A stretch of DNA of 36,540 nucleotides from a virus (Duplodnaviria > Caudoviricetes), in IMG/VR virus record IMGVR_UViG_3300047669_001410, positions 1 through 36,540 of that record. One strand, 5' to 3'. Positions 3,096-36,540 of this stretch are shown here, in pieces (position 1 is the first letter of the stretch; each line of letters opens with the position of its first letter). A program made the position numbers and the translations under genes. The notes beneath the pieces are model-generated. The model had not been told where the DNA came from. It did not search any database and was given only the letters and a program-made list of their open reading frames with translations.

Positions 3096-4094
3096 TTATC
3101 CTCCTATATAATCGTTAAATATTTCATTGCTTACGCCTAAAAGCTCTACATAACCGGAATAATCTTCTGTTAACAAACTAAAAAAATTAAATTCTAAATC
3201 AATTCTTGTGTAATCTCCATTTTCTGATGAAATTTCTGATATAATTAAAGATTTTTCAACAAACCCATTATCTAATATCGTGGAATCATCCCAAGCCCAT
3301 TTTGAAAGGTTGCTGTCTACTACATTTTCTATTGGAGAACCAAATATTGCAAGTTCATCGCCTTCTGAAGGATCAAAATCTTCAATAATTGTTTCTCCCC
3401 AGCCGCCGCCTGTGGAGCTTTGTAAGCCGTCTAGCCTGTATATATTAAATGTATCTGCTCCGTTTCCTCCATATAACTTTATTGGTTCGCTGTTACTAGT
3501 TTTATGATGACTTATGTTGATTGTATCATCACCATTTCCTGCATCAATATATTCTCTTTTTTCCAAGACGAAGCCATTTGTTCCAACAAAATTAATAACA
3601 TCATTTCCTTCATGCGCTGAAAGAGCTGTGTTTCCAGAGGAAAAATCTATAACGTCATCGTTTATTGTTCCTTCAATTCTAGGCGAAACTGGATTAGCTC
3701 CAAAGCTTGAGTTATTTATTGTTAAATGAGACAAATTATCTGAAATAAAGCTCATTTCTGTTTGGTCATTCGTATAAAAGAATGATCCATTTTCATGTTG
3801 GTAACGTGCTACGCCACTTGTTGTGTCAGTAGTGAAAGCAATGCCTTCATAGTTCCATTCATTTGAAAGATTATCGATAATATTGTCTTTTTCAGTCTCG
3901 TCTGAAGAAAGAAGATGTCTGCCATCTATTTTATTAAAAAAGCGAAAAACGTTAACGTCGCCGTCAACAGTTTCCCATTTTGCTCCTTCGTAATTCCAAT
4001 CTGTGTTTTCCCTTAAACTGGCAATTTCATTTTTGTCTGTGGTGTAATGATGATTGGTTGATGTTGGGTTATAAAACCTGAATACTGTAGCCAT
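3096..4094 (-). CDS. DUF5648-repeat protein with RTX/hemolysin-type Ca-binding repeats
   Basis: Three repeats of VFRFYN...H.YT...E...WNYEG, the third degenerate. RTX-like IDAGNGDDTI and LYGGNGADTF, plus IIEDFDPSEGDEL. Confidence 0.8.
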   Translation of the reverse strand: MATVFRFYNPTSTNHHYTTDKNEIASLRENTDWNYEGAKWETVDGDVNVFRFFNKIDGRHLLSSDETEKDNIIDNLSNEWNYEGIAFTTDTTSGVARYQHENGSFFYTNDQTEMSFISDNLSHLTINNSSFGANPVSPRIEGTINDDVIDFSSGNTALSAHEGNDVINFVGTNGFVLEKREYIDAGNGDDTINISHHKTSNSEPIKLYGGNGADTFNIYRLDGLQSSTGGGWGETIIEDFDPSEGDELAIFGSPIENVVDSNLSKWAWDDSTILDNGFVEKSLIISEISSENGDYTRIDLEFNFFSLLTEDYSGYVELLGVSNEIFNDYIGG

Positions 4095-4562: not shown

Positions 4563-4607
4563 AAAAAAAAAGGAACGACCCCACCCGTATTTTATGGGCA
4601 GGGCCGC
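4563..4607 (-). terminator. Rho-independent terminator closing the first early operon
   Basis: GCGGCCCTGCCC-9nt-GGGTGGGGTCGT stem with G-U pairs, followed by TCC and T9. Confidence 0.8.
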
Positions 4608-4616
4608 AGGGAGCTT

Positions 4617-5216
4617 TTATTTAAGACCTGACAATTGAGCGTTAACTTCGTTAGCTGTTAATTTGCGGCTTTCATGAGCTGGTTTCCAAGGCTCCCATTC
4701 TTTGCCCATTAACGATGAATAAATTTCTTTGCCAGCTTTAGCAAAAGAAACGGCAAGATGTCGTTCAAGCTCATTGGCTTGTTGCTGCGCTTTTAACCTT
4801 GCAAGCTCTACTGCGTCAATTTCACCTGTCGCTACTGCTCCAGCTCTGAATTTAGCACTTACTCGTAAAAGCATTGCCTCTCTTTCATTAATGCGTTTTT
4901 CTGCTCTATCACAATTTCCAATAATTGATGATGCAATTGTGCCGATAAAAAACGCTAAAGGAGGACGTGCTTCTTCGCCTACCATATATTCTCCCGAACA
5001 ATTAGTGTCCGATATTGATTTAAGCAAAGCCATAATGTCACGACAATCCTCAAGAATTACTTGCTCGGATTCCATGCAAGCTGCTCTTTCAAGCGATTCA
5101 TTCTTTTCATGCCGCGCTTGGAGAGCTTGTAAACTCTTTGGCTTATCTTTAGCAAAATTAAAAGCTTCTAAAAGTGATTGACCTTTTTTCTGAACAAATG
5201 ATGTATCTAAGCTCAT
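4617..5216 (-). CDS. Helical protein resembling the N-terminal region of alphaproteobacterial DUF2493-containing mobile-element proteins
   Basis: GEIDAVELARL...IYSSLMGKEWEPW...RKLTA resembles the G.E..SVELERL...TG..W.P...LTAA pattern, recognised from memory. Confidence 0.55.
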   Translation of the reverse strand: MSLDTSFVQKKGQSLLEAFNFAKDKPKSLQALQARHEKNESLERAACMESEQVILEDCRDIMALLKSISDTNCSGEYMVGEEARPPLAFFIGTIASSIIGNCDRAEKRINEREAMLLRVSAKFRAGAVATGEIDAVELARLKAQQQANELERHLAVSFAKAGKEIYSSLMGKEWEPWKPAHESRKLTANEVNAQLSGLK

Positions 5217-5395
5217 GATTTATCTCCTTTTGATGTAGATGAATTAACGTTATTTAAGCTGTCAGAAACAGTAATACTAAATGTATCTAACAATTCTTGA
5301 ACCACATCGCCCATAAAAACTGGCGAAGTTCCGCGAAATGAAGGTGAAGTTTCTTCAGCTAGATGATCTTGAATTTCTGAAATACTAAAAGCCAT
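5213..5395 (-). CDS. Small acidic early protein
   Basis: 60 aa with GGAG SD, and TAATG/ATGA overlaps with both neighbours. Confidence 0.7.
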   Translation of the reverse strand: MAFSISEIQDHLAEETSPSFRGTSPVFMGDVVQELLDTFSITVSDSLNNVNSSTSKGDKS

Positions 5396-5547
5396 TAACT
5401 TTCTCCATTCTTGCTGTCATGTAACTCGTTCAATTCGTTAACGTCACGTTTGAAGTTTATGTATGTGCAAATGGCTCCTGCAACAGCGTAACAAGCCATT
5501 AAAATCGATATGCTGTATACAAGGAAAGTAAGTACGAATGTAGTCAT
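5395..5547 (-). CDS. 50-aa single-TM membrane protein, first gene of the early operon
   Basis: Manual translation: MTTFVLTFLVYSISILMACYAVAGAICTYINFKRDVNELNELHDSKNGES. TAGGAG SD, and its stop overlaps the next start. Confidence 0.7.
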   Translation of the reverse strand: MTTFVLTFLVYSISILMACYAVAGAICTYINFKRDVNELNELHDSKNGES

Positions 5548-5586
5548 GATATTCTCCTAAGTTATTCCGATGCCCTATGCACCGGC

Positions 5587-5791
5587 GACCTCGGCGGTCC
5601 AGACTGCTAGGTGTAGTCAAGGGGTAAACTGCGTTTAGGTTTCTGCAAGGAGCTTATCGAAACTTTTGATGGGCAGGAATTACTCAGGGATAAGACAAGG
5701 TAATACTGAAATAAATCAATTAGTGCAGATTAGTGTATGAAGAATGCCGACCCCTTTACTTCACCGTTAAGTCTGGTACGATAAAGAGGTC
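5587..5791. promoter_or_regulatory. Long imperfect inverted repeat, Frpo/ssi-like ssDNA hairpin promoter
   Basis: 5587-5625 pairs with 5750-5791. The right arm has TTTACT-16nt-TACGAT with TGn, and the left arm has AGTCAA (complement of TTGACT). The -10 box falls in a mismatched bubble. Confidence 0.65.
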
Positions 5792-5940
5792 TGTGTGTGT
5801 AGTACTCTCACTCATAAAGTTCGATGTAATATCCTTTCTAAGTGTGACATAAATGCCAAATACAAAACTATTTTAAGTCGGTTAAAGTTAAGCAATGACT
5901 GAATACCTAGAGTTTTAATAAAGTGTGACAAAAGTACATC

Positions 5941-5970
5941 TTGACACTAATAAAGTAAGGGTTCACTAAT
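5941..5970 (+). promoter_or_regulatory. Possible sigma70 promoter for terS
   Basis: Perfect TTGACA at 5941-5946, but only a weak -10. Confidence 0.35.
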
Positions 5971-6014
5971 AACTCACTTTGTTGTTATCTACTTTAAGAT
6001 AAGATAAGGCAATC

Positions 6015-6443
6015 ATGAACAACGATTCATTCAATGCTCCTACTAAAGCAGTTCAACACGAATTAGATGAGCTAAGCTTGCGCTTAACTCCATTTCAGAA
6101 ACGATTCTGTGATGTCATGGCAATCGGTAATGTAAGATCCCGAAGCGAAGCAGTAAGATTAGCAGGAAGCAAGGCGAAACGACCAGCTTCAGTAGCTCAT
6201 AAACTCATGCAAAACACAGTAGTTTTGGAATATATAAGAAACGCAGTAATGAGTAAGCTTAATACAGACATGGTAAGTAGCGCAGTAGCTACGATGCAGC
6301 AATTAATCCATGAAGCAGACGAAGATAAGGTACGATTTGCAGCAGCAAAGGATACATTAGATCGTATGGGTATGAAAGTAATGGAAAGAAAGCATGTAAC
6401 TCACTCAGGAAGTGTAAGTGTACATATAGACTTAGGAGAATAA
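6015..6443 (+). CDS. terS: Terminase small subunit
   Basis: LTPFQKRFC...SEAVRLAGS...AHKLMQN HTH and VRFAAAKDTLDRMG. First gene of the structural arm. Confidence 0.75.
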   Translation: MNNDSFNAPTKAVQHELDELSLRLTPFQKRFCDVMAIGNVRSRSEAVRLAGSKAKRPASVAHKLMQNTVVLEYIRNAVMSKLNTDMVSSAVATMQQLIHEADEDKVRFAAAKDTLDRMGMKVMERKHVTHSGSVSVHIDLGE

Positions 6444-6570
6444 AAAAGAGAGAGTAAGCGTTTGCCGTAGATAGAGAGGGGGGGGGTTTAAAAACAGGAC
6501 TTATCTACACCGACTTCCCCTAGAGACACACGATATAAGCTTTTTCTATAGCTCTCAAAAAAAATATTTT

Positions 6571-6577
6571 GTGCGTA
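6571..6577 (+). promoter_or_regulatory. GTGCGTA motif, putative late promoter
   Basis: Intergenic, after an AT tract, 52 nt before the fibre ATG. Confidence 0.55.
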
Positions 6578-6622
6578 CAAATAGGAAAAATTATTTGTTA
6601 GTTCTTTATAAGCGGAGGATCA

Positions 6623-8053
6623 ATGACCAAACAAATTATAGATAATTTACAGCCAGGAACATTAGACGGTGACTCTCTTTATACTACTGCTGAAAAAGTA
6701 AACGCTAATTTTAATGATATTTATTCCCATTTTGGGGATGGCTCAGTTTTAGATGGTGGTTACACTGGCTTAAAGAGTCTAAACGCTGGTTTGATTGTTA
6801 GCCAAGGACTTAATAGCTATACCTCCAGAGAAATTAAAAGCCTGACTAGCAGCATTCAAATAACAAACGGCACTGGCGCTCAAGGCGACCCTACTCTTGA
6901 TCTTTCTTTGACAGGGGTTTTGTCTCCAGGATCAAGTCCTTTTTTAAGTGCGCAACAAGGATTTACTGTAGATGTTCAAGGCAGGATAACTAAGCTTTCT
7001 GTTCCTACGACGCTTTCTGAATCAACCGCGCAAGCAAATGCCTCGGCCGGTTCTGCGACTGTTGCCAGCACCCAAGCTACAAACGCAGCTAACAGCGCGT
7101 CGGCAGCAGCTACTTCTGCTACTACTGCTAATAATGGTATATCAACAATTGCGACAAGCTTATCTTCCGCGCAAACCGCAGCAACTACCGCGTCTTCAGC
7201 CGCGACAACTGCCAGCGGCCATAAAGATACAGCTACAACACAAGCTGGATTAGCAACAACCAAAGCTTCAGAAGCCGTAACATCTGCAAGCGCCGCCTCA
7301 ACTTCTGCTGGAACAGCAACGACTCAAGCAGGGATATCAACAACTAAAGCTAGTGAAGCGTCTGTCTCGGCGAGCACAGCTACTACAGCTAAATCTGCAG
7401 CAGAAACAGCAGCATCGGCAGCAGCCGCGTCTTTTGATAGCTTTGACGATAGATACCTTGGAGCAAAAGGCACAGCTCCTACAGTAGACAATGATGGAAA
7501 TACACTTCTTGTTGGCAGCCTTTATTTTGATACGTCGTCGAATGAATTAAAGGTTAGAACTGCAACAGTTTGGCAGGGAGGCGTAACAGCAACAGGCGGG
7601 TTTATGACCGGAGCCAGCAATTTATCAGATCTTGCAAATGCTGTTACAAGTCGAGGAAATTTAGGCATTGGAACAATTGCAACTCAAGCTGCAAATAGCG
7701 TTTCAATAACTGGTGGGTCTATTAGTGGGATTACTGACTTAGCTATAGTAGATGGAGGAACTGGATCAGGTACAGCTTCTGGTGCTCGAACTAATTTAGG
7801 GCTACATGCAGTTGCGGCTAGCGGCGCTTATTCAGATTTGAGTGGATTGCCAGCGACAGTTACCCACCTTTCTATTACAGGAGGTTCTGCCGGAACAATA
7901 CCCTATCAAACCGCCGTAAATACCACAGGAATGTCGGCAGTTGGAACAACAGGACAAGTGTTGAGTAGCAATGCGACAGGAGCGCCAACTTGGATTAATC
8001 AAGACGCGTTAAGTGCCGGTGGCGGTATTGCCTCACAAATGAAATTTTCATAG
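6623..8053 (+). CDS. Fibre protein with T4 gp9/gp10-like N-terminal domain
   Basis: N-terminus KQII...DGDSL...EKVNANFNDIY, an Ala/Ser/Thr-rich shaft, and FDDRYLGAK..APTVDNDG and NLSDL...RGNLG fibre motifs. Confidence 0.75.
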   Translation: MTKQIIDNLQPGTLDGDSLYTTAEKVNANFNDIYSHFGDGSVLDGGYTGLKSLNAGLIVSQGLNSYTSREIKSLTSSIQITNGTGAQGDPTLDLSLTGVLSPGSSPFLSAQQGFTVDVQGRITKLSVPTTLSESTAQANASAGSATVASTQATNAANSASAAATSATTANNGISTIATSLSSAQTAATTASSAATTASGHKDTATTQAGLATTKASEAVTSASAASTSAGTATTQAGISTTKASEASVSASTATTAKSAAETAASAAAASFDSFDDRYLGAKGTAPTVDNDGNTLLVGSLYFDTSSNELKVRTATVWQGGVTATGGFMTGASNLSDLANAVTSRGNLGIGTIATQAANSVSITGGSISGITDLAIVDGGTGSGTASGARTNLGLHAVAASGAYSDLSGLPATVTHLSITGGSAGTIPYQTAVNTTGMSAVGTTGQVLSSNATGAPTWINQDALSAGGGIASQMKFS

Positions 8054-8064
8054 GAACATAAAAC

Positions 8065-9768
8065 ATGGCTGATCTGGTAAAGCAAATATTTCATAAAAAA
8101 TACACTCCTGCTGAAATAGGCGCAGGCAACATTGCCTCTGTTACAACTGATGCAACAACAGCTTTAGTTATTAAAGATGTAAATGTAGCGCATAGTGATG
8201 GCTCAACTTCTCATCCTTTGGCTACGCTTTCCGTTGGGACAACTGCGGATTTAGCTGCAACCCCTAGCAAGTTTATAAATTTAGGCACAATTAGCAGCAG
8301 CACAACTAAAGGAGTTTCTGGATCGGAAATTGTTGACGTGTCATCTACTCTTTCAGTAAGAGTCCCCGCCCAGCCAATTAATTTTGTAGATTATAGACAT
8401 TCTTCACTTGCTTACATAACGACTTCAAATATTACTCAATGCCAAGGAATAGAACTTAGTGTTAATAAAATTCCAGAGCCTGTTGGAGAGCAAACAGTTC
8501 AAACATCTACTACATTTTCTGCCACTACAACTGGTGCGGGCACGATGGACTACAGCGGTAATTTTAGGCAATTTGTTACAAATACCATCACAAATTTAAA
8601 ACATTTCTTTACCGTATTAAATAACAGAGGCGGTCAAACAAATTTAATTTATACTGGAAGTTTTGATGGAACTACCCATTATCTAACTGGCCACGGAACA
8701 GGCAACAGACCTTGGGATTACGACGGTAGGTTTTTAGTTGCTCCTGACAACACAACTAGATTTCAATATCATGATCTCAAAGGCGCAGCTTCTCGAAGTC
8801 CCCACACAGGAACACACGGTTATGTGGATTTGTACAATAAAGCTGGAACGGCATTAACTCGTCCTACAATGGGGGGCAGTTACGCCATTCATAATATGGC
8901 TTATTTTTCAGATAACGGTAAACGAATGTCAGTTCACTCAAGCGCATATAACAAAGAAGTATTTTTAGTGGAATGGCCTGACTACACAACTGAATCTCTA
9001 GCTTGGTCGTCGCCAAATAATAGAACAACAGGTTTCTGGCTATTAGCAAATGCTGCTCAAACATCAAGTAACGGAAGTTACGGTCCAAACAGTAATAGAT
9101 CTTCCCCCGGATATATTCGAGCTACTTATTCACAAAGCAACTATCGACAAAACTGGTTTATTGGAACTACGGCGTACTCTAAAACCAAACGGATTTTAAT
9201 ATTTTCAAATGGACACGCAACGCAGCATTCAAATACGTTGTACTTTTTTTGGGCAGACACAGATCATATGCACCAATCAAGTTTTACATCAAGCTCAAAT
9301 TCTTACAGCGTGGACGTAAATGACGCAAACCTTCTCTTGGGTTGGCACACATCGTATCTTGCTGGTGGCAATTGGGTTAACAGCGGCAATACTGCTTCAA
9401 TAACTGCTGCTGCTTTCCGAGGCAGAACCGGATCGTCCGCAAGCTGGACACACACATCTCAATTTTATCTTGACCAAGATATTCTCACATTTACAAATAG
9501 TATGTCAGCCGGAAACGGACCTGGCCCAATCGTTTCTTGGAATATGAAAACCAATGAAGTTACTGCCGCAGGAGGTCTGACTTGGGCAAAATATGTCGAT
9601 TCAAGCGGAACCGCTTTGGCAAATCCTGGCGCAGGAGAAACCGAGGGATTTGTTATAGGCCACAGGTCGTTTGCTTCTGCCCCTTCATCTACTCAAATTT
9701 CAGGTCGCTCATATACTGTAGCCCCTGAGCTAGAAGTAAGAATAACAGCAGTCGAGGAGAGTAGATAA
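8065..9768 (+). CDS. Fibre-associated, putative receptor-binding beta-rich protein
   Basis: 567 aa rich in S/T/G/aromatic residues. Follows the fibre gene, and its C-terminus VRITAVEE resembles that of the next gene. Confidence 0.55.
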   Translation: MADLVKQIFHKKYTPAEIGAGNIASVTTDATTALVIKDVNVAHSDGSTSHPLATLSVGTTADLAATPSKFINLGTISSSTTKGVSGSEIVDVSSTLSVRVPAQPINFVDYRHSSLAYITTSNITQCQGIELSVNKIPEPVGEQTVQTSTTFSATTTGAGTMDYSGNFRQFVTNTITNLKHFFTVLNNRGGQTNLIYTGSFDGTTHYLTGHGTGNRPWDYDGRFLVAPDNTTRFQYHDLKGAASRSPHTGTHGYVDLYNKAGTALTRPTMGGSYAIHNMAYFSDNGKRMSVHSSAYNKEVFLVEWPDYTTESLAWSSPNNRTTGFWLLANAAQTSSNGSYGPNSNRSSPGYIRATYSQSNYRQNWFIGTTAYSKTKRILIFSNGHATQHSNTLYFFWADTDHMHQSSFTSSSNSYSVDVNDANLLLGWHTSYLAGGNWVNSGNTASITAAAFRGRTGSSASWTHTSQFYLDQDILTFTNSMSAGNGPGPIVSWNMKTNEVTAAGGLTWAKYVDSSGTALANPGAGETEGFVIGHRSFASAPSSTQISGRSYTVAPELEVRITAVEESR

Positions 9769-10462: not shown

Positions 10463-10696
10463 GTGAAAGAAATTGATTTTTCAAAAATAGAACCGTATCA
10501 TTATTCTGATTGGTTAGCCTCTTTGAAATACGAAGATCTTCAAAGATTGCGCCAAGTAGTGCGAAAAATGCATATGAAAGATTATCCAAAAAGCCGCATT
10601 ACTGAACGCGAAATGGATCGCATTATTGAAGCAATTGGACCAAGGGTTGCGGAACAAAACTTAAAGGCTTTAATTGATGCTGGAAAACTCACCTGA
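10463..10696 (+). CDS. Hypothetical protein upstream of terL
   Basis: GTG start with AAGGAG SD. Overlaps the terL start. Confidence 0.7.
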   Translation: MKEIDFSKIEPYHYSDWLASLKYEDLQRLRQVVRKMHMKDYPKSRITEREMDRIIEAIGPRVAEQNLKALIDAGKLT

Positions 10697-12263
10697 AGAA
10701 CAAGGCTATAAATTTAGTTATAAGCCTGGTGGAGAAACTTTAAAGAATTTCTTAAAAGATAATTCGTTTGTGCGAGGAATGAGGGGGCCAGTTGGGTCAG
10801 GAAAATCTGTAAGTTGTTGCATTGAAGTAATGCGCAGAGCTTGTGAACAAGAGCCAGATAAAAACGGAGTGCGCCGGTCAAGATGGGGCGTAATTAGAAA
10901 CACAAATCCCCAGCTTAAAACAACAACTATTAAAACGTGGCTTGATTGGTATCCTGAAAATATATTTGGGGTTTTTAAATGGTCTGTGCCTTACACGCAT
11001 ATGGTCAGATTTGCTGACGTTGAAATAGAAGTAATCTTTCTTGCTTTAGATAGAGATGAAGATGTTAGAAAACTTTTATCTATTGAGTTCACAGGCATTT
11101 GGATTAATGAAGCAAGAGAAGTTCCTAAATCTATTATTGACGCTTGCACAATGCGCGTCGGGCGTTTTCCAAGTCGCAAAGACGGAGGCCCATCTTGGTA
11201 TGGAGTAATAATGGACACAAACGCTCCTGATGAAGATCACTGGTGGGCAATTATGTCTGGAGAAGTTCCGTTGCCTGAATACCTTACTCGTGAAGAAGCT
11301 TTAATGCTTGTTCGCCCAGATGACTGGTCTTTTTATAGTCAGCCTTCTGCGTTAAATGAAGTAAAGTCTCCAGATGGAGAAGTTATTGATTACAAGCCAA
11401 ATCCAAAAGCTGAAAATAAACACAACCTTGTTGAAACCTATTACCCGAAACTTGTAGCAGGAAAGACAAAATCATGGATAGACGTTTATGTAATGAACAG
11501 GATCGGAAACGTAGTAGAGGGGAAATCAGTGTACGCAAACTTTGCTCCAGAAATACATATGGCAAGAGAGCCAATTCCCGTAGTGCCAAATCAAGATTTG
11601 ATTATTGGTATGGATTTTGGATTAACGCCAGCCGCCGTTTTTTGTCAACGGCTCCCTACTGGGCGCTGGTTGGTTTTAGCGGAACTTGTGGCTTCGAATA
11701 TGGGGGCAGAGAAATTTTCTCAAGAAATCAAACACGTCCTCGCCAAAAAATTCCCTGACCATTTTGATGACGCTATTATTTACGGAGATCCATCTGGAGA
11801 TTATAGAGCGCAAACTGATGAGAAAACACCGTTTTCAATTTTAAGAGCCGCCGGATTGAAAGCTTATCCTGCGCCAAGCAATGATCCAAGTATAAGGATT
11901 GATAGCGTGGACGGGACTTTAACTCGCGTTGTTCAAGGTAAACCTGGATTTTTATTAGATCCTAGTTGCACTATTTTAAAACGCGGGTTTGAAGGCGGCT
12001 ACGCTTATATGAGAGTTAGAGCTTCAGGAGCAACTGAAAGATACCACGATGCTCCAGACAAAAACAAATTTAGTCACATCCATGATGCGTTGCAATACGC
12101 AATGATTGGAGGCGGGGAAAGCCGCAAAATGATGGGTCGCAACAGAGCTAACGTTGTAAATGCAAAAGCTGTATGGGACCCATTTGATAGACAAAAAGAA
12201 CGCATGAGTCCACAGAAAAAAGAGAATGATAAATGGGAACGTCTATTTCGGCGTGGTATTTAG
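10674..12263 (+). CDS. terL: Terminase large subunit
   Basis: Walker A GPVGSGKS, Walker B IWINEARE, coupling motif DTN, and nuclease motifs GMDFGL and HIHDALQY. Confidence 0.95.
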   Translation: MMLENSPEEQGYKFSYKPGGETLKNFLKDNSFVRGMRGPVGSGKSVSCCIEVMRRACEQEPDKNGVRRSRWGVIRNTNPQLKTTTIKTWLDWYPENIFGVFKWSVPYTHMVRFADVEIEVIFLALDRDEDVRKLLSIEFTGIWINEAREVPKSIIDACTMRVGRFPSRKDGGPSWYGVIMDTNAPDEDHWWAIMSGEVPLPEYLTREEALMLVRPDDWSFYSQPSALNEVKSPDGEVIDYKPNPKAENKHNLVETYYPKLVAGKTKSWIDVYVMNRIGNVVEGKSVYANFAPEIHMAREPIPVVPNQDLIIGMDFGLTPAAVFCQRLPTGRWLVLAELVASNMGAEKFSQEIKHVLAKKFPDHFDDAIIYGDPSGDYRAQTDEKTPFSILRAAGLKAYPAPSNDPSIRIDSVDGTLTRVVQGKPGFLLDPSCTILKRGFEGGYAYMRVRASGATERYHDAPDKNKFSHIHDALQYAMIGGGESRKMMGRNRANVVNAKAVWDPFDRQKERMSPQKKENDKWERLFRRGI

Positions 12264-30348: not shown

Positions 30349-30466
30349 TATTGGTTGTCAGCTTTGGAGAGAAAACACTCCTTTAGCTAGCTCAATTGAC
30401 ACTTCAAAAACATTAAACGACATTATTATTTTTAATGAAGTTATGGATAAAGCTTGTGCTAATTGA
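30260..30466 (+). CDS. Putative o-spanin lipoprotein (Rz1-like)
   Basis: MQEVTQKFCGILLLSLAITS-C lipobox. Starts inside the upstream gene in the +1 frame and has additional Cys residues. Confidence 0.65.
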   Translation: MQEVTQKFCGILLLSLAITSCGASGLVKTDIGCQLWRENTPLASSIDTSKTLNDIIIFNEVMDKACAN

Positions 30467-31544
30467 TGAGGATGAGCTTACGCAGCTGGTTATTTTGTAT
30501 CGTAAACATAATCTTTCTATCCGGCGTACTGCTTCTGAGCTTGGTATGGACAGGAATACTACTAGCAGGAGGCTTAATAAAGCACGTGAATTGGGTCTTT
30601 TGGGGCTGGATGAAAAAACTGAATGGGGAAAAAGTATAAACATTATGGAAAAAAGCAAACCGTTAGAACCTATTTTTGAAGCTCCAGAATTAATAAGCGA
30701 AGACGTTCCAATTGAAGAATTAATTGAAAGAAAGTTATACGATTTTGAGCGCAAACAACAAGCCGCTGAAAGCAGAAAATTAATTAATATTAAAATAAAA
30801 GAAAAAGGTCCAATTGGCTTAATCACTTTTGGCGACCCTCACGTTGATGATGACGGTTGTGATTTCAAAGCTTTATTAAGAGATGTTGAAATTGCAAAAA
30901 ATACAAAAGGAATGATGGCTGGAAATGTTGGAGATCTTCAAAACAACTGGGTGGGCCGGTTATCTCGTTTATACGGAGAGCAATCTACTAGCAAACGTCA
31001 AGCTTGGCAACTTACCGAATGGTTGGCTACTGAAGTTCCTTGGTTATTTTTAATTAAAGGTAATCATGATATGTGGACAGGCACAGGAGATCCCCTTGAT
31101 TACATGAAAATTCCAGGGCAAGGCATTTTAGAAGAATGGAGTACTCGATTAGCTTTGCAATTCCCTAACGGAAAAGAAGTAAGAGTTCATTGTCGCCACG
31201 ATTTTAAAGGTCACAGCCAATGGAATTTAGCGCATGGCATTGCTAAAGCAGCTCAAATGTATTGGCACGATCATATTTTGTTAGCAGGACACAAACACGT
31301 TACTGCTTACAACATAGTTATGCAACCATCTGACGGAATGCTTTCGCATTGCATTAGGGTTGGAGGATATAAAAAATACGATACTTATGCAAAAGTTGGA
31401 AACTTTGAAGATCATAATTTTGCTTCAAGTTGTGTATGCGTTATTAATCCAGAAGCAGAAACAGAATCTGGTTTAGTTCAAGTGTTTTGGGACGTTGAAG
31501 CTGGAGCAGATTATTTAACTTATTTAAGAAAAGAATACGATTAA
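30435..31544 (+). CDS. Calcineurin-like metallophosphoesterase with N-terminal HTH
   Basis: Motifs GDPH, GDLQNN, KGNHD, RHD and AGHKH. N-terminal SIRRTASELGMDRNTTSRRL. Confidence 0.88.
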   Translation: MKLWIKLVLIDEDELTQLVILYRKHNLSIRRTASELGMDRNTTSRRLNKARELGLLGLDEKTEWGKSINIMEKSKPLEPIFEAPELISEDVPIEELIERKLYDFERKQQAAESRKLINIKIKEKGPIGLITFGDPHVDDDGCDFKALLRDVEIAKNTKGMMAGNVGDLQNNWVGRLSRLYGEQSTSKRQAWQLTEWLATEVPWLFLIKGNHDMWTGTGDPLDYMKIPGQGILEEWSTRLALQFPNGKEVRVHCRHDFKGHSQWNLAHGIAKAAQMYWHDHILLAGHKHVTAYNIVMQPSDGMLSHCIRVGGYKKYDTYAKVGNFEDHNFASSCVCVINPEAETESGLVQVFWDVEAGADYLTYLRKEYD

Positions 31545-36354: not shown

Positions 36355-36540
36355 CGTCTATGCCTTTCATCTGTTATTTTTCCGTTTTCAATAACGTTTA
36401 ACAAGTTTAAAGAGCGTCTTAATAATCGTTCATCTTTTCCCCATGTTTCGTTTTCCATGTTTTTTAATACAATTAAAAATTCAGCTAGCTTTGGAAGAGA
36501 TGAATAAATGTGAGTTTGCTCAAATTGTATAAACGTTTGC
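36351..36540 (-). CDS. Junction-spanning ORF, 3' part
   Basis: Reads ...LRRSLNLLNVIENGKITDERHRR* and continues the frame from 1-715. Confidence 0.7.
   Translation of the reverse strand, partial: QTFIQFEQTHIYSSLPKLAEFLIVLKNMENETWGKDERLLRRSLNLLNVIENGKITDERHRR
36386..36540 (+). repeat. Terminal direct repeat, copy 2
   Basis: 154/155 identical to bases 1-155. Confidence 0.95.

Follow-up and report, generated by a model that had tools for sequence, protein, structure and literature searches.

We analysed the window, a stretch of 36,540 nucleotides (nt; IMG/VR virus record IMGVR_UViG_3300047669_001410) that represents the whole genome of a marine podovirus-like phage, assembled as a circle, and found that the divergent gap between its first leftward open reading frame (ORF; ATG 5547) and the terminase small subunit gene terS contains an inverted repeat whose plus strand is predicted to fold back on itself. 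The fold-back is real, selected and strand-specific. By its architecture, we rate it at somewhat better than even odds that it is a promoter acting on single-stranded DNA (ssDNA), similar to the Frpo/ssi promoters, for which Masai and Arai 1997 is reportedly a source. Selection for a Frpo-like architecture in a family of double-stranded DNA (dsDNA) tailed phages implies that infection or replication begins with a single-stranded stage that has gone unrecognised. If this is true, it would give tailed phages a new means of launching and timing infection.

A preliminary description of the locus had named two arms, promoter boxes, small hairpins, an AGGAG and an ATG, and these proved correct in every coordinate and letter (Table 1). 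The right arm reads TTTACT, a 16-nt spacer and TACGAT, with a TG at -15/-14, and TACGAT lies opposite GGCGGT at 5593-5598. Leftward dsDNA (the minus strand) reads TTGACT-16-ACCGCC, which agrees with the earlier statement that it lacks a -10 box. On a rough sigma70 matrix, whose E. coli-like frequencies may not match the hosts' sigma, this left-arm site scores at most -1.3 bits and the best leftward site in 5580-6015 scores 6.8 bits; the right-arm promoter scores 8.5 bits, which is reached by 132 of 365,090 site and spacer combinations in the genome. In the DNA ensemble of the plus strand, pair probabilities in the main stem are mostly 0.8-1.0, with a minimum of 0.64 in the -10 region. Folding both strands as DNA had been proposed as a check, and here the arms do fold on the plus strand, but a difference from the minus strand is absent (z -2.27 for plus and -2.62 for minus, with 4 of 200 shuffles on each strand). 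Among sliding 205-nt windows of the genome, 17 of 728 fold at least as well, and the inverted-repeat score of 30 lies inside the control range (mean 26, standard deviation 4). Taken from this one sequence, the significance of the fold-back is modest and without strand specificity. A blastn search of 5400-6100 against phages returned chance matches only.

A stronger case comes from close relatives, of which a search with terS turned up 7 viral and 12 metagenome loci. Their gap sequences differ, but a core at 5622-5639 and 5746-5753 is kept and forms a three-way junction on top of the main stem. The roughly 125-nt loop that had been described between the arms is therefore not a plain loop, as it begins with this invariant junction. 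The inner hairpin at 5652-5674 folds only on the plus strand, as described (-2.4 versus 0 as DNA), but relatives do not conserve it, and the minimum-energy structure computed for the whole region lacks it. When as many as 3 mismatches were allowed, the core was present in 16 of 226 terS loci, all of them close relatives in this subclade. The fold-back also shows covariation, for which the preliminary description had proposed a test: across 6 distinct sequences, which represent only 3-4 lineages and were counted without the indel-bearing outer stem, 93% of cells were paired and 5 of 19 pairs had changes on both sides. None of 500 shuffles reached the covariation score, and slid controls were 30-56% paired. 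A -10-like hexamer lies 16-18 nt past the right-arm -35 in four of the six sequences (TACGAT, GAGAAT, TATAAT and TATAAG), and in these four the -10 is confined to the right arm. Two of the relatives carry extra GC-rich, hairpin-like non-coding sequence between the right arm and terS (L001:4560-4900 and L007:4500-4900), which is absent from the window.

The wider family shows the same arrangement in sequences that no longer resemble each other. Three family searches yielded 226 loci with terS, 169 of them with 1 kb upstream, which reduced to 109 non-redundant junctions and 72 sequence-unrelated groups; because only the best 80 of about 600 scanned matches were kept per search, this sample leans to the queries. 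We called a long inverted repeat at a score above 46, the control maximum as first observed. By this threshold, 74 of the 109 junctions had a repeat, compared with 0 of 267 control windows (above 40, 77 versus 2). Long repeats occurred in 48 of the 72 groups, with a median arm of 128 nt. The left arm covers the ATG of the first gene in 34 of these 48, and the median distance from stem top to ATG is 78 nt. Where the ATG is covered, the right arm mirrors the leader and the opening codons in decayed form, and the mirror copy extends up to 200 nt. Across the wider family, then, the structure is kept and the sequence is not. In Hodr (Pelagibacter phage EXVC031P, OQ414635.1), the closest cultured relative (TerL 58%, portal 48%), the top repeat of the 30 kb examined lies at this junction, with a score of 121 versus 40. 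Even so, 27 low-scoring groups fold more stably than coding controls (-48.6 versus -35.8 kcal/mol), and this extra stability suggests that some low-repeat junctions are probably branched versions of the fold-back.

The imperfections of the stems indicate which strand folds, and as what. When one sequence per group was counted, isolated mismatches on the plus strand were G.T 118, G.A 110, C.T 62, T.T 53, G.G 33, A.A 27, A.C 26 and C.C 4. The mismatches leaned to the plus strand in 41 of 48 groups and to the minus strand in 4, with 3 tied, and the plus strand is the template strand of the early leftward genes. At 15 loci (17 less 2 near-duplicates), left-arm mismatches had G and C in the ratio 90:31, and the flank had no GC skew. 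Mismatch counts correlated with DNA mismatch energies (rho -0.83, p 0.01) and, less closely, with RNA energies (-0.67, p 0.07). In the ViennaRNA costs, G.A is close to G.T for DNA (1.6 and 1.5), and G.A is like C.U for RNA (3.3). Run through the same pipeline, three F leading-region hairpins gave a G.T:G.A ratio of 13:13, while 30 6S and 30 signal recognition particle RNAs gave 42:17 (p 0.008 versus phage), although the latter control consists of poor alignments of homologous RNAs, with mean scores of 15-19. GCGAAGC, which forms a highly stable mini-hairpin in DNA and was among nine motifs checked, occurred on the plus strand in 16 of 72 groups and on the minus strand in 4 (p 0.012). As far as sequence can tell, the mismatch spectrum and this motif favour ssDNA over RNA, and we infer that the folding molecule is DNA. 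Counts of C(GNA)G triloops in general (30 versus 20 at junctions, 18 versus 10 in controls) were uninformative.

The downstream side of the stem fits with transcription starting at its base. A hairpin just past the stem base is better on the mRNA strand in all six close sequences, by 3.7-8.3 kcal/mol, and in all six the strand preference switches to the mRNA strand at this point, as would be expected if transcripts start there. In the window this is the 5567-5585 hairpin, which favours the minus strand as had been claimed (-11.1 versus -5.6 kcal/mol as RNA). Family-wide counts of mRNA 5' hairpins (24 versus 5 of 32) and of motifs (14 versus 5 of 19) went unused, as the picking of segments and motifs was biased. 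The predicted first transcription unit ends in a terminator-like hairpin that a consensus scan missed because its loop limit was 8. The first gene mostly belongs to one divergent helical family: 36 of 47 were joined by an iterative hidden Markov model (HMM), along with the window ORF at 4617-5216. Of the high-repeat junctions, 46 of 55 have this family, compared with 11 of 29 of the low-repeat ones; the comparison is partly circular, since the HMM was built from the high-repeat junctions. The protein family is fast-evolving and is the first early gene in most relatives. For the 199-amino-acid (aa) protein itself we found no PHROGs or Pfam match, and 27 scanned relatives gave three weak matches; its best Atlas score was 0.77, its structure model (predicted local distance difference test score, pLDDT, 73) had no fold match at E 0.001, and an acidic SSB-type tail was looked for and not seen.

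We propose that the plus strand, when unpaired, would fold so that the right arm provides the non-template -35 and -10, with the left arm serving as template. The sigma70 RNA polymerase of the host would start near 5589 and read leftward through the first three ORFs. Re-formation of dsDNA would switch the promoter off and thereby limit the first genes to a brief pulse. Frpo transcripts are reported to prime synthesis of the missing strand, and the hairpin transcript could do likewise. As for the genome end, a conserved G-run motif follows terS, with a G5/C5 run in 58 of 70 groups versus 28 of 301 control windows; it may be a packaging or terminus signal. Its order is a G-run, A5, and then an AC-rich stretch and A/T-tract, and Greip and HTVC100P have a C-run/ACAC/A-T tract element ahead of their late genes. 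The last-packaged end of a phage genome generally enters the cell first, so rightward packaging from this motif would place the hairpin about 700 nt from the first-entering end. The guess we prefer puts the genome end at this motif and has a host nuclease resect the entering end 5'-to-3', which would leave the plus strand as a 3' tail; in the ordinary course, host end-resection attacks linear phage DNA. The strand could also be exposed by strand displacement or by rolling-circle replication.

DNA contigs from four runs span the hairpin and terS, with no apparent terminus and, among the listed variants in 5528-6635, a one-base G-run difference only. Upstream contig ends of relatives fall within 250 nt of the terS anchor in 22 of 76 cases; they are scattered, reflect either a terminus or an assembly or trimming effect, and are not interpretable. 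The literature on the packaging mode of TerL relatives, including the available part of PMC4802629, held nothing usable, and the main text of PMC8477408, in the part available, does not mention a promoter, hairpin or terminal repeat. It is possible, but doubtful, that a large marine dsDNA podovirus family starts its first genes from ssDNA at the leading genome end, with host end-resection or single-strand entry as the trigger and a mirror arm evolving in step with the first gene.

Several observations weigh against an ssDNA promoter. The route by which the plus strand would become single is a guess and the weakest step of the proposal. Family-wide, the best sigma70 score favoured the right arm over leftward dsDNA in 27 versus 20 of 48 groups (p 0.54), a -10-only test gave 17 versus 13 of 34 (p 0.33), and the best -10 was no more unpaired than background. 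In a third test, the mirror of the best right-arm site lost less -35 score (1.5 versus 3.4 bits, p 0.018) and more -10 score (2.5 versus 1.1, p 0.05) than that of the best dsDNA site; the result is borderline, with a Frpo-like pattern of -35 kept and -10 lost in its parts, but the test was post hoc and its totals were equal at 17 versus 17. The sequence evidence for promoter function across the family is thus weak. Among the close sequences, two of six (L001 and L007) have no -10-like hexamer at 16-18 nt, and for 3 of 5 arm types the leftward dsDNA -35 (TTGACT, TTGACA or TTGAAG) is nearer consensus than that of the right arm, as would equally fit a dsDNA promoter that depends on an activator. 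The spacer to the right of the arms has a GC skew of +0.15, which accounts for part of the mismatch bias. Better folding of the plus strand is not diagnostic alone: whole-region folding energy favoured it in 16 of 16 cases, but likewise in 20 of 25 coding controls, and was dropped as a strand test. Finally, 35 of the 109 junctions, this window included, lie at or below the repeat threshold, and Greip and HTVC100P (HTVC010P-type) and MEP301 lack the repeat although their structural genes are related. Of the Frpo-like promoter that the preliminary description proposed, what has held up is a fold-back conserved by structure, on the template strand, with a DNA-like mismatch spectrum; family-wide, the sigma70 tests gave two negative results and a borderline one, and plasmid promoters show no sequence homology to it.

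The gene to the right appears to have a promoter of its own. TTGAC[AT] occurs upstream of terS in 63 of 72 groups, versus 1 of 72 inside the gene. The preliminary description had raised the alternative that the right arm is simply the terS promoter, which this separate motif weakens. The terS promoters of the family have a near-invariant TTGACA and a poor -10, often at 18 nt, and may need an activator. A TGTGAC-like motif stands ahead of the predicted terS promoter in the window (5841 and 5923) and also in L006 and L007. In RNA contigs from four runs, most of the cover is over late genes; a single terS piece begins at 5992 and none of the listed pieces falls in 5196-5991, but nothing follows from this lack of cover.

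The fold-back might instead serve DNA metabolism as ssDNA, as a priming site, a replication roadblock or a terminus-processing hairpin near the genome end, with the early genes on an ordinary or activator-dependent promoter. The DNA-type mismatch spectrum is silent on transcription, the fold-back adjoins terS and the conserved G-run motif, the phage encodes an SSB, a weak Rad52-like match and exonuclease matches, and the available part of one preprint describes plasmid ssp2 as a roadblock and Frpo transcripts as priming synthesis (bioRxiv 10.64898/2026.01.09.698686). We nevertheless consider this unlikely, given that the left arm keeps a fairly constant distance as it follows the leader, ribosome-binding site (RBS) and first codons of a first gene that evolves fast, and that the mRNA-strand hairpin begins right at the stem base. 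If the folding molecule were a rightward RNA, an antisense or leader over the start of the first early gene that is masked by its own mirror arm, the same bias of G.T over A.C would result. This reading earns little credence from us: G.A equals G.T, unlike in the RNA controls and RNA energies, UUCG is without strand bias (3 versus 3 across 72 groups), Rfam 15 covariance models had no match in 5300-6100 to E 10, and terS has its own promoter motif.

An inverted duplication could also have produced two divergent dsDNA promoters, the leftward one with a good -35 and dependent either on a host factor or activator that binds at the invariant core, or on a supercoil-driven cruciform. The leftward -35 hexamers of the close relatives, the terS promoters with their likewise strong -35 and poor -10, and the equal promoter scores on both arms across the family all speak for this. 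It would leave unexplained, however, why coding sequence is mirrored over as much as 200 nt, the one-strand mismatch bias and the compensatory changes of the inner stem, and we think it quite improbable. That the right arm is merely a rightward terS promoter and the repeat a product of chance is very hard to credit: the arm does resemble a rightward promoter, of fair quality here and strong at locus L005, and the repeat score of the window is within the control range, but the separate terS motif, the excess of repeats at junctions over controls and the compensatory changes all contradict it.

Table 1. Coordinates of the fold-back and surrounding features in the window
Feature	Coordinates	Strand	Remarks
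Left arm; predicted template strand	5587-5625	+	anti -35 5615-5620, mismatched anti -10 5593-5598
Right arm; predicted non-template strand	5750-5791	+	TTTACT 5755-5760, TG, TACGAT 5777-5782
Invariant core, 5' half: main-stem end, 4-bp triloop hairpin, inner-stem start	5622-5639	+	identical in 6/6 aligned sequences
Invariant core, 3' half GCCGACCC, closes junction	5746-5753	+	
Variable inner arm	5640-5745	+	conserved only at base (5641-5644 with 5741-5744), by compensatory change
TTGACA, predicted -35 of separate rightward terS promoter	5941-5946	+	
Predicted first transcription unit	4617-5558	-	RBS 5558-5554 (AGGAG), three ORFs
First ORF, 50 aa	5547-5395	-	
Second ORF, 60 aa	5395-5213	-	
Third ORF, 199 aa, helical	5216-4617	-	member of the family's usual first-gene family
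Stem-loop at predicted 5' end of early mRNA	5567-5585	-	G.U pairs work on mRNA strand
Terminator-like 12-bp hairpin and U9 tract, closes first unit	4563-4607	-	-21.5 kcal/mol, z -2.4
G-run / A5 motif past terS, non-coding and conserved; candidate signal for packaging or terminus	6478-6570	+	
terS, terminase small subunit	6015-6443	+	
TerL	10674-12263	+	

The assembly has a 155-nt terminal overlap with one mismatch (1-155 / 36386-36540), so the leftward genes at both ends are contiguous. Leftward genes serve replication and recombination, and rightward genes encode TerS, TerL, portal, capsid, tail tubes and internal virion proteins. The phage had been described as having no RNA polymerase of its own, and indeed none was matched in PHROGs (50 ORFs) or Pfam (22 ORFs; largest ORF 1145 aa). 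No conjugation genes were found among the 50 scanned ORFs. The window does not group with the HTVC010P type, as its portal is about 28% identical to those of Greip and HTVC100P and neither phage is among the 30 listed TerL matches of 37. Between terS and terL, in an unusual order, lie a tail-fibre-like gene and a 567-aa ORF of no known function (6623-9768). A 332-aa ORF at 3096-4094 with DUF5648 and an acidic, repeat-like C-terminal half is unusual in an early region, and a helix-turn-helix and metallophosphoesterase gene (30435-31544) ends the late operon, as it does in MEP301. A terS search across 185,579 genomes found 5 contigs of metagenome-assembled genomes, and we estimate that about 1,400-1,900 IMG/VR stretches match terminase genes of the Hodr-related family.

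Promoters on ssDNA that are read by host polymerase have been described in conjugative plasmids, which enter the cell as ssDNA by their very mode of transfer. The available parts of four sources place the Frpo/ssi promoters (ssp classes 1-3) in the leading regions of F, ColIb-P9 and pESBL (PMC9849209, PMC12672017, PMC11541004, PMC13478746). The phage element resembles them in forming a long and imperfect stem-loop in the template strand, immediately ahead of early genes, with predicted -35 and -10 boxes within the stem (here in the right arm of four of six close sequences), in its arm length (about 150 nt in F versus the family median given above) and in its mismatch spectrum (G.T = G.A > C.T, A.C). 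It differs in belonging to a dsDNA tailed phage without a known ssDNA transfer step, in a stem that covers the RBS and start codon in most groups, whereas three F stems end 37-47 nt before the ATG, and in the invariant three-way junction added by this subclade; its promoter activity is a prediction. A blastn search of 72,556 plasmids gave no match to E 1. The fold-back is thus not a member of the Frpo family, since it fails on location and homology. Like the F ssp2 roadblock and the single-strand origins primed by RNA polymerase, it might, as a stem-loop in ssDNA, hold up or prime synthesis of the complementary strand and at the same time drive early genes, but the replicon is different. Titles and abstract openings, with most subscription journals outside the scope, gave no account of such elements in dsDNA phages, and no paper on pelagiphage Hodr was found. 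Phage N4 transcribes its early genes from a short hairpin on the single-stranded template strand by means of a virion RNA polymerase. Early transcription from a hairpin on such a strand is what we predict here, but this genome has no polymerase match and its family has stems of 39-200 nt with sigma70-like boxes. A further parallel is Hodr, which has the same gene layout and, at the same place, a 170-nt inverted repeat with a right arm of TTGTTA-16-TATATT; that repeat has no sequence similarity to the one in the window and is not annotated in OQ414635.1. As Hodr is cultured, on Pelagibacter HTCC1062, and carries a strong version of the repeat, the idea is directly testable.
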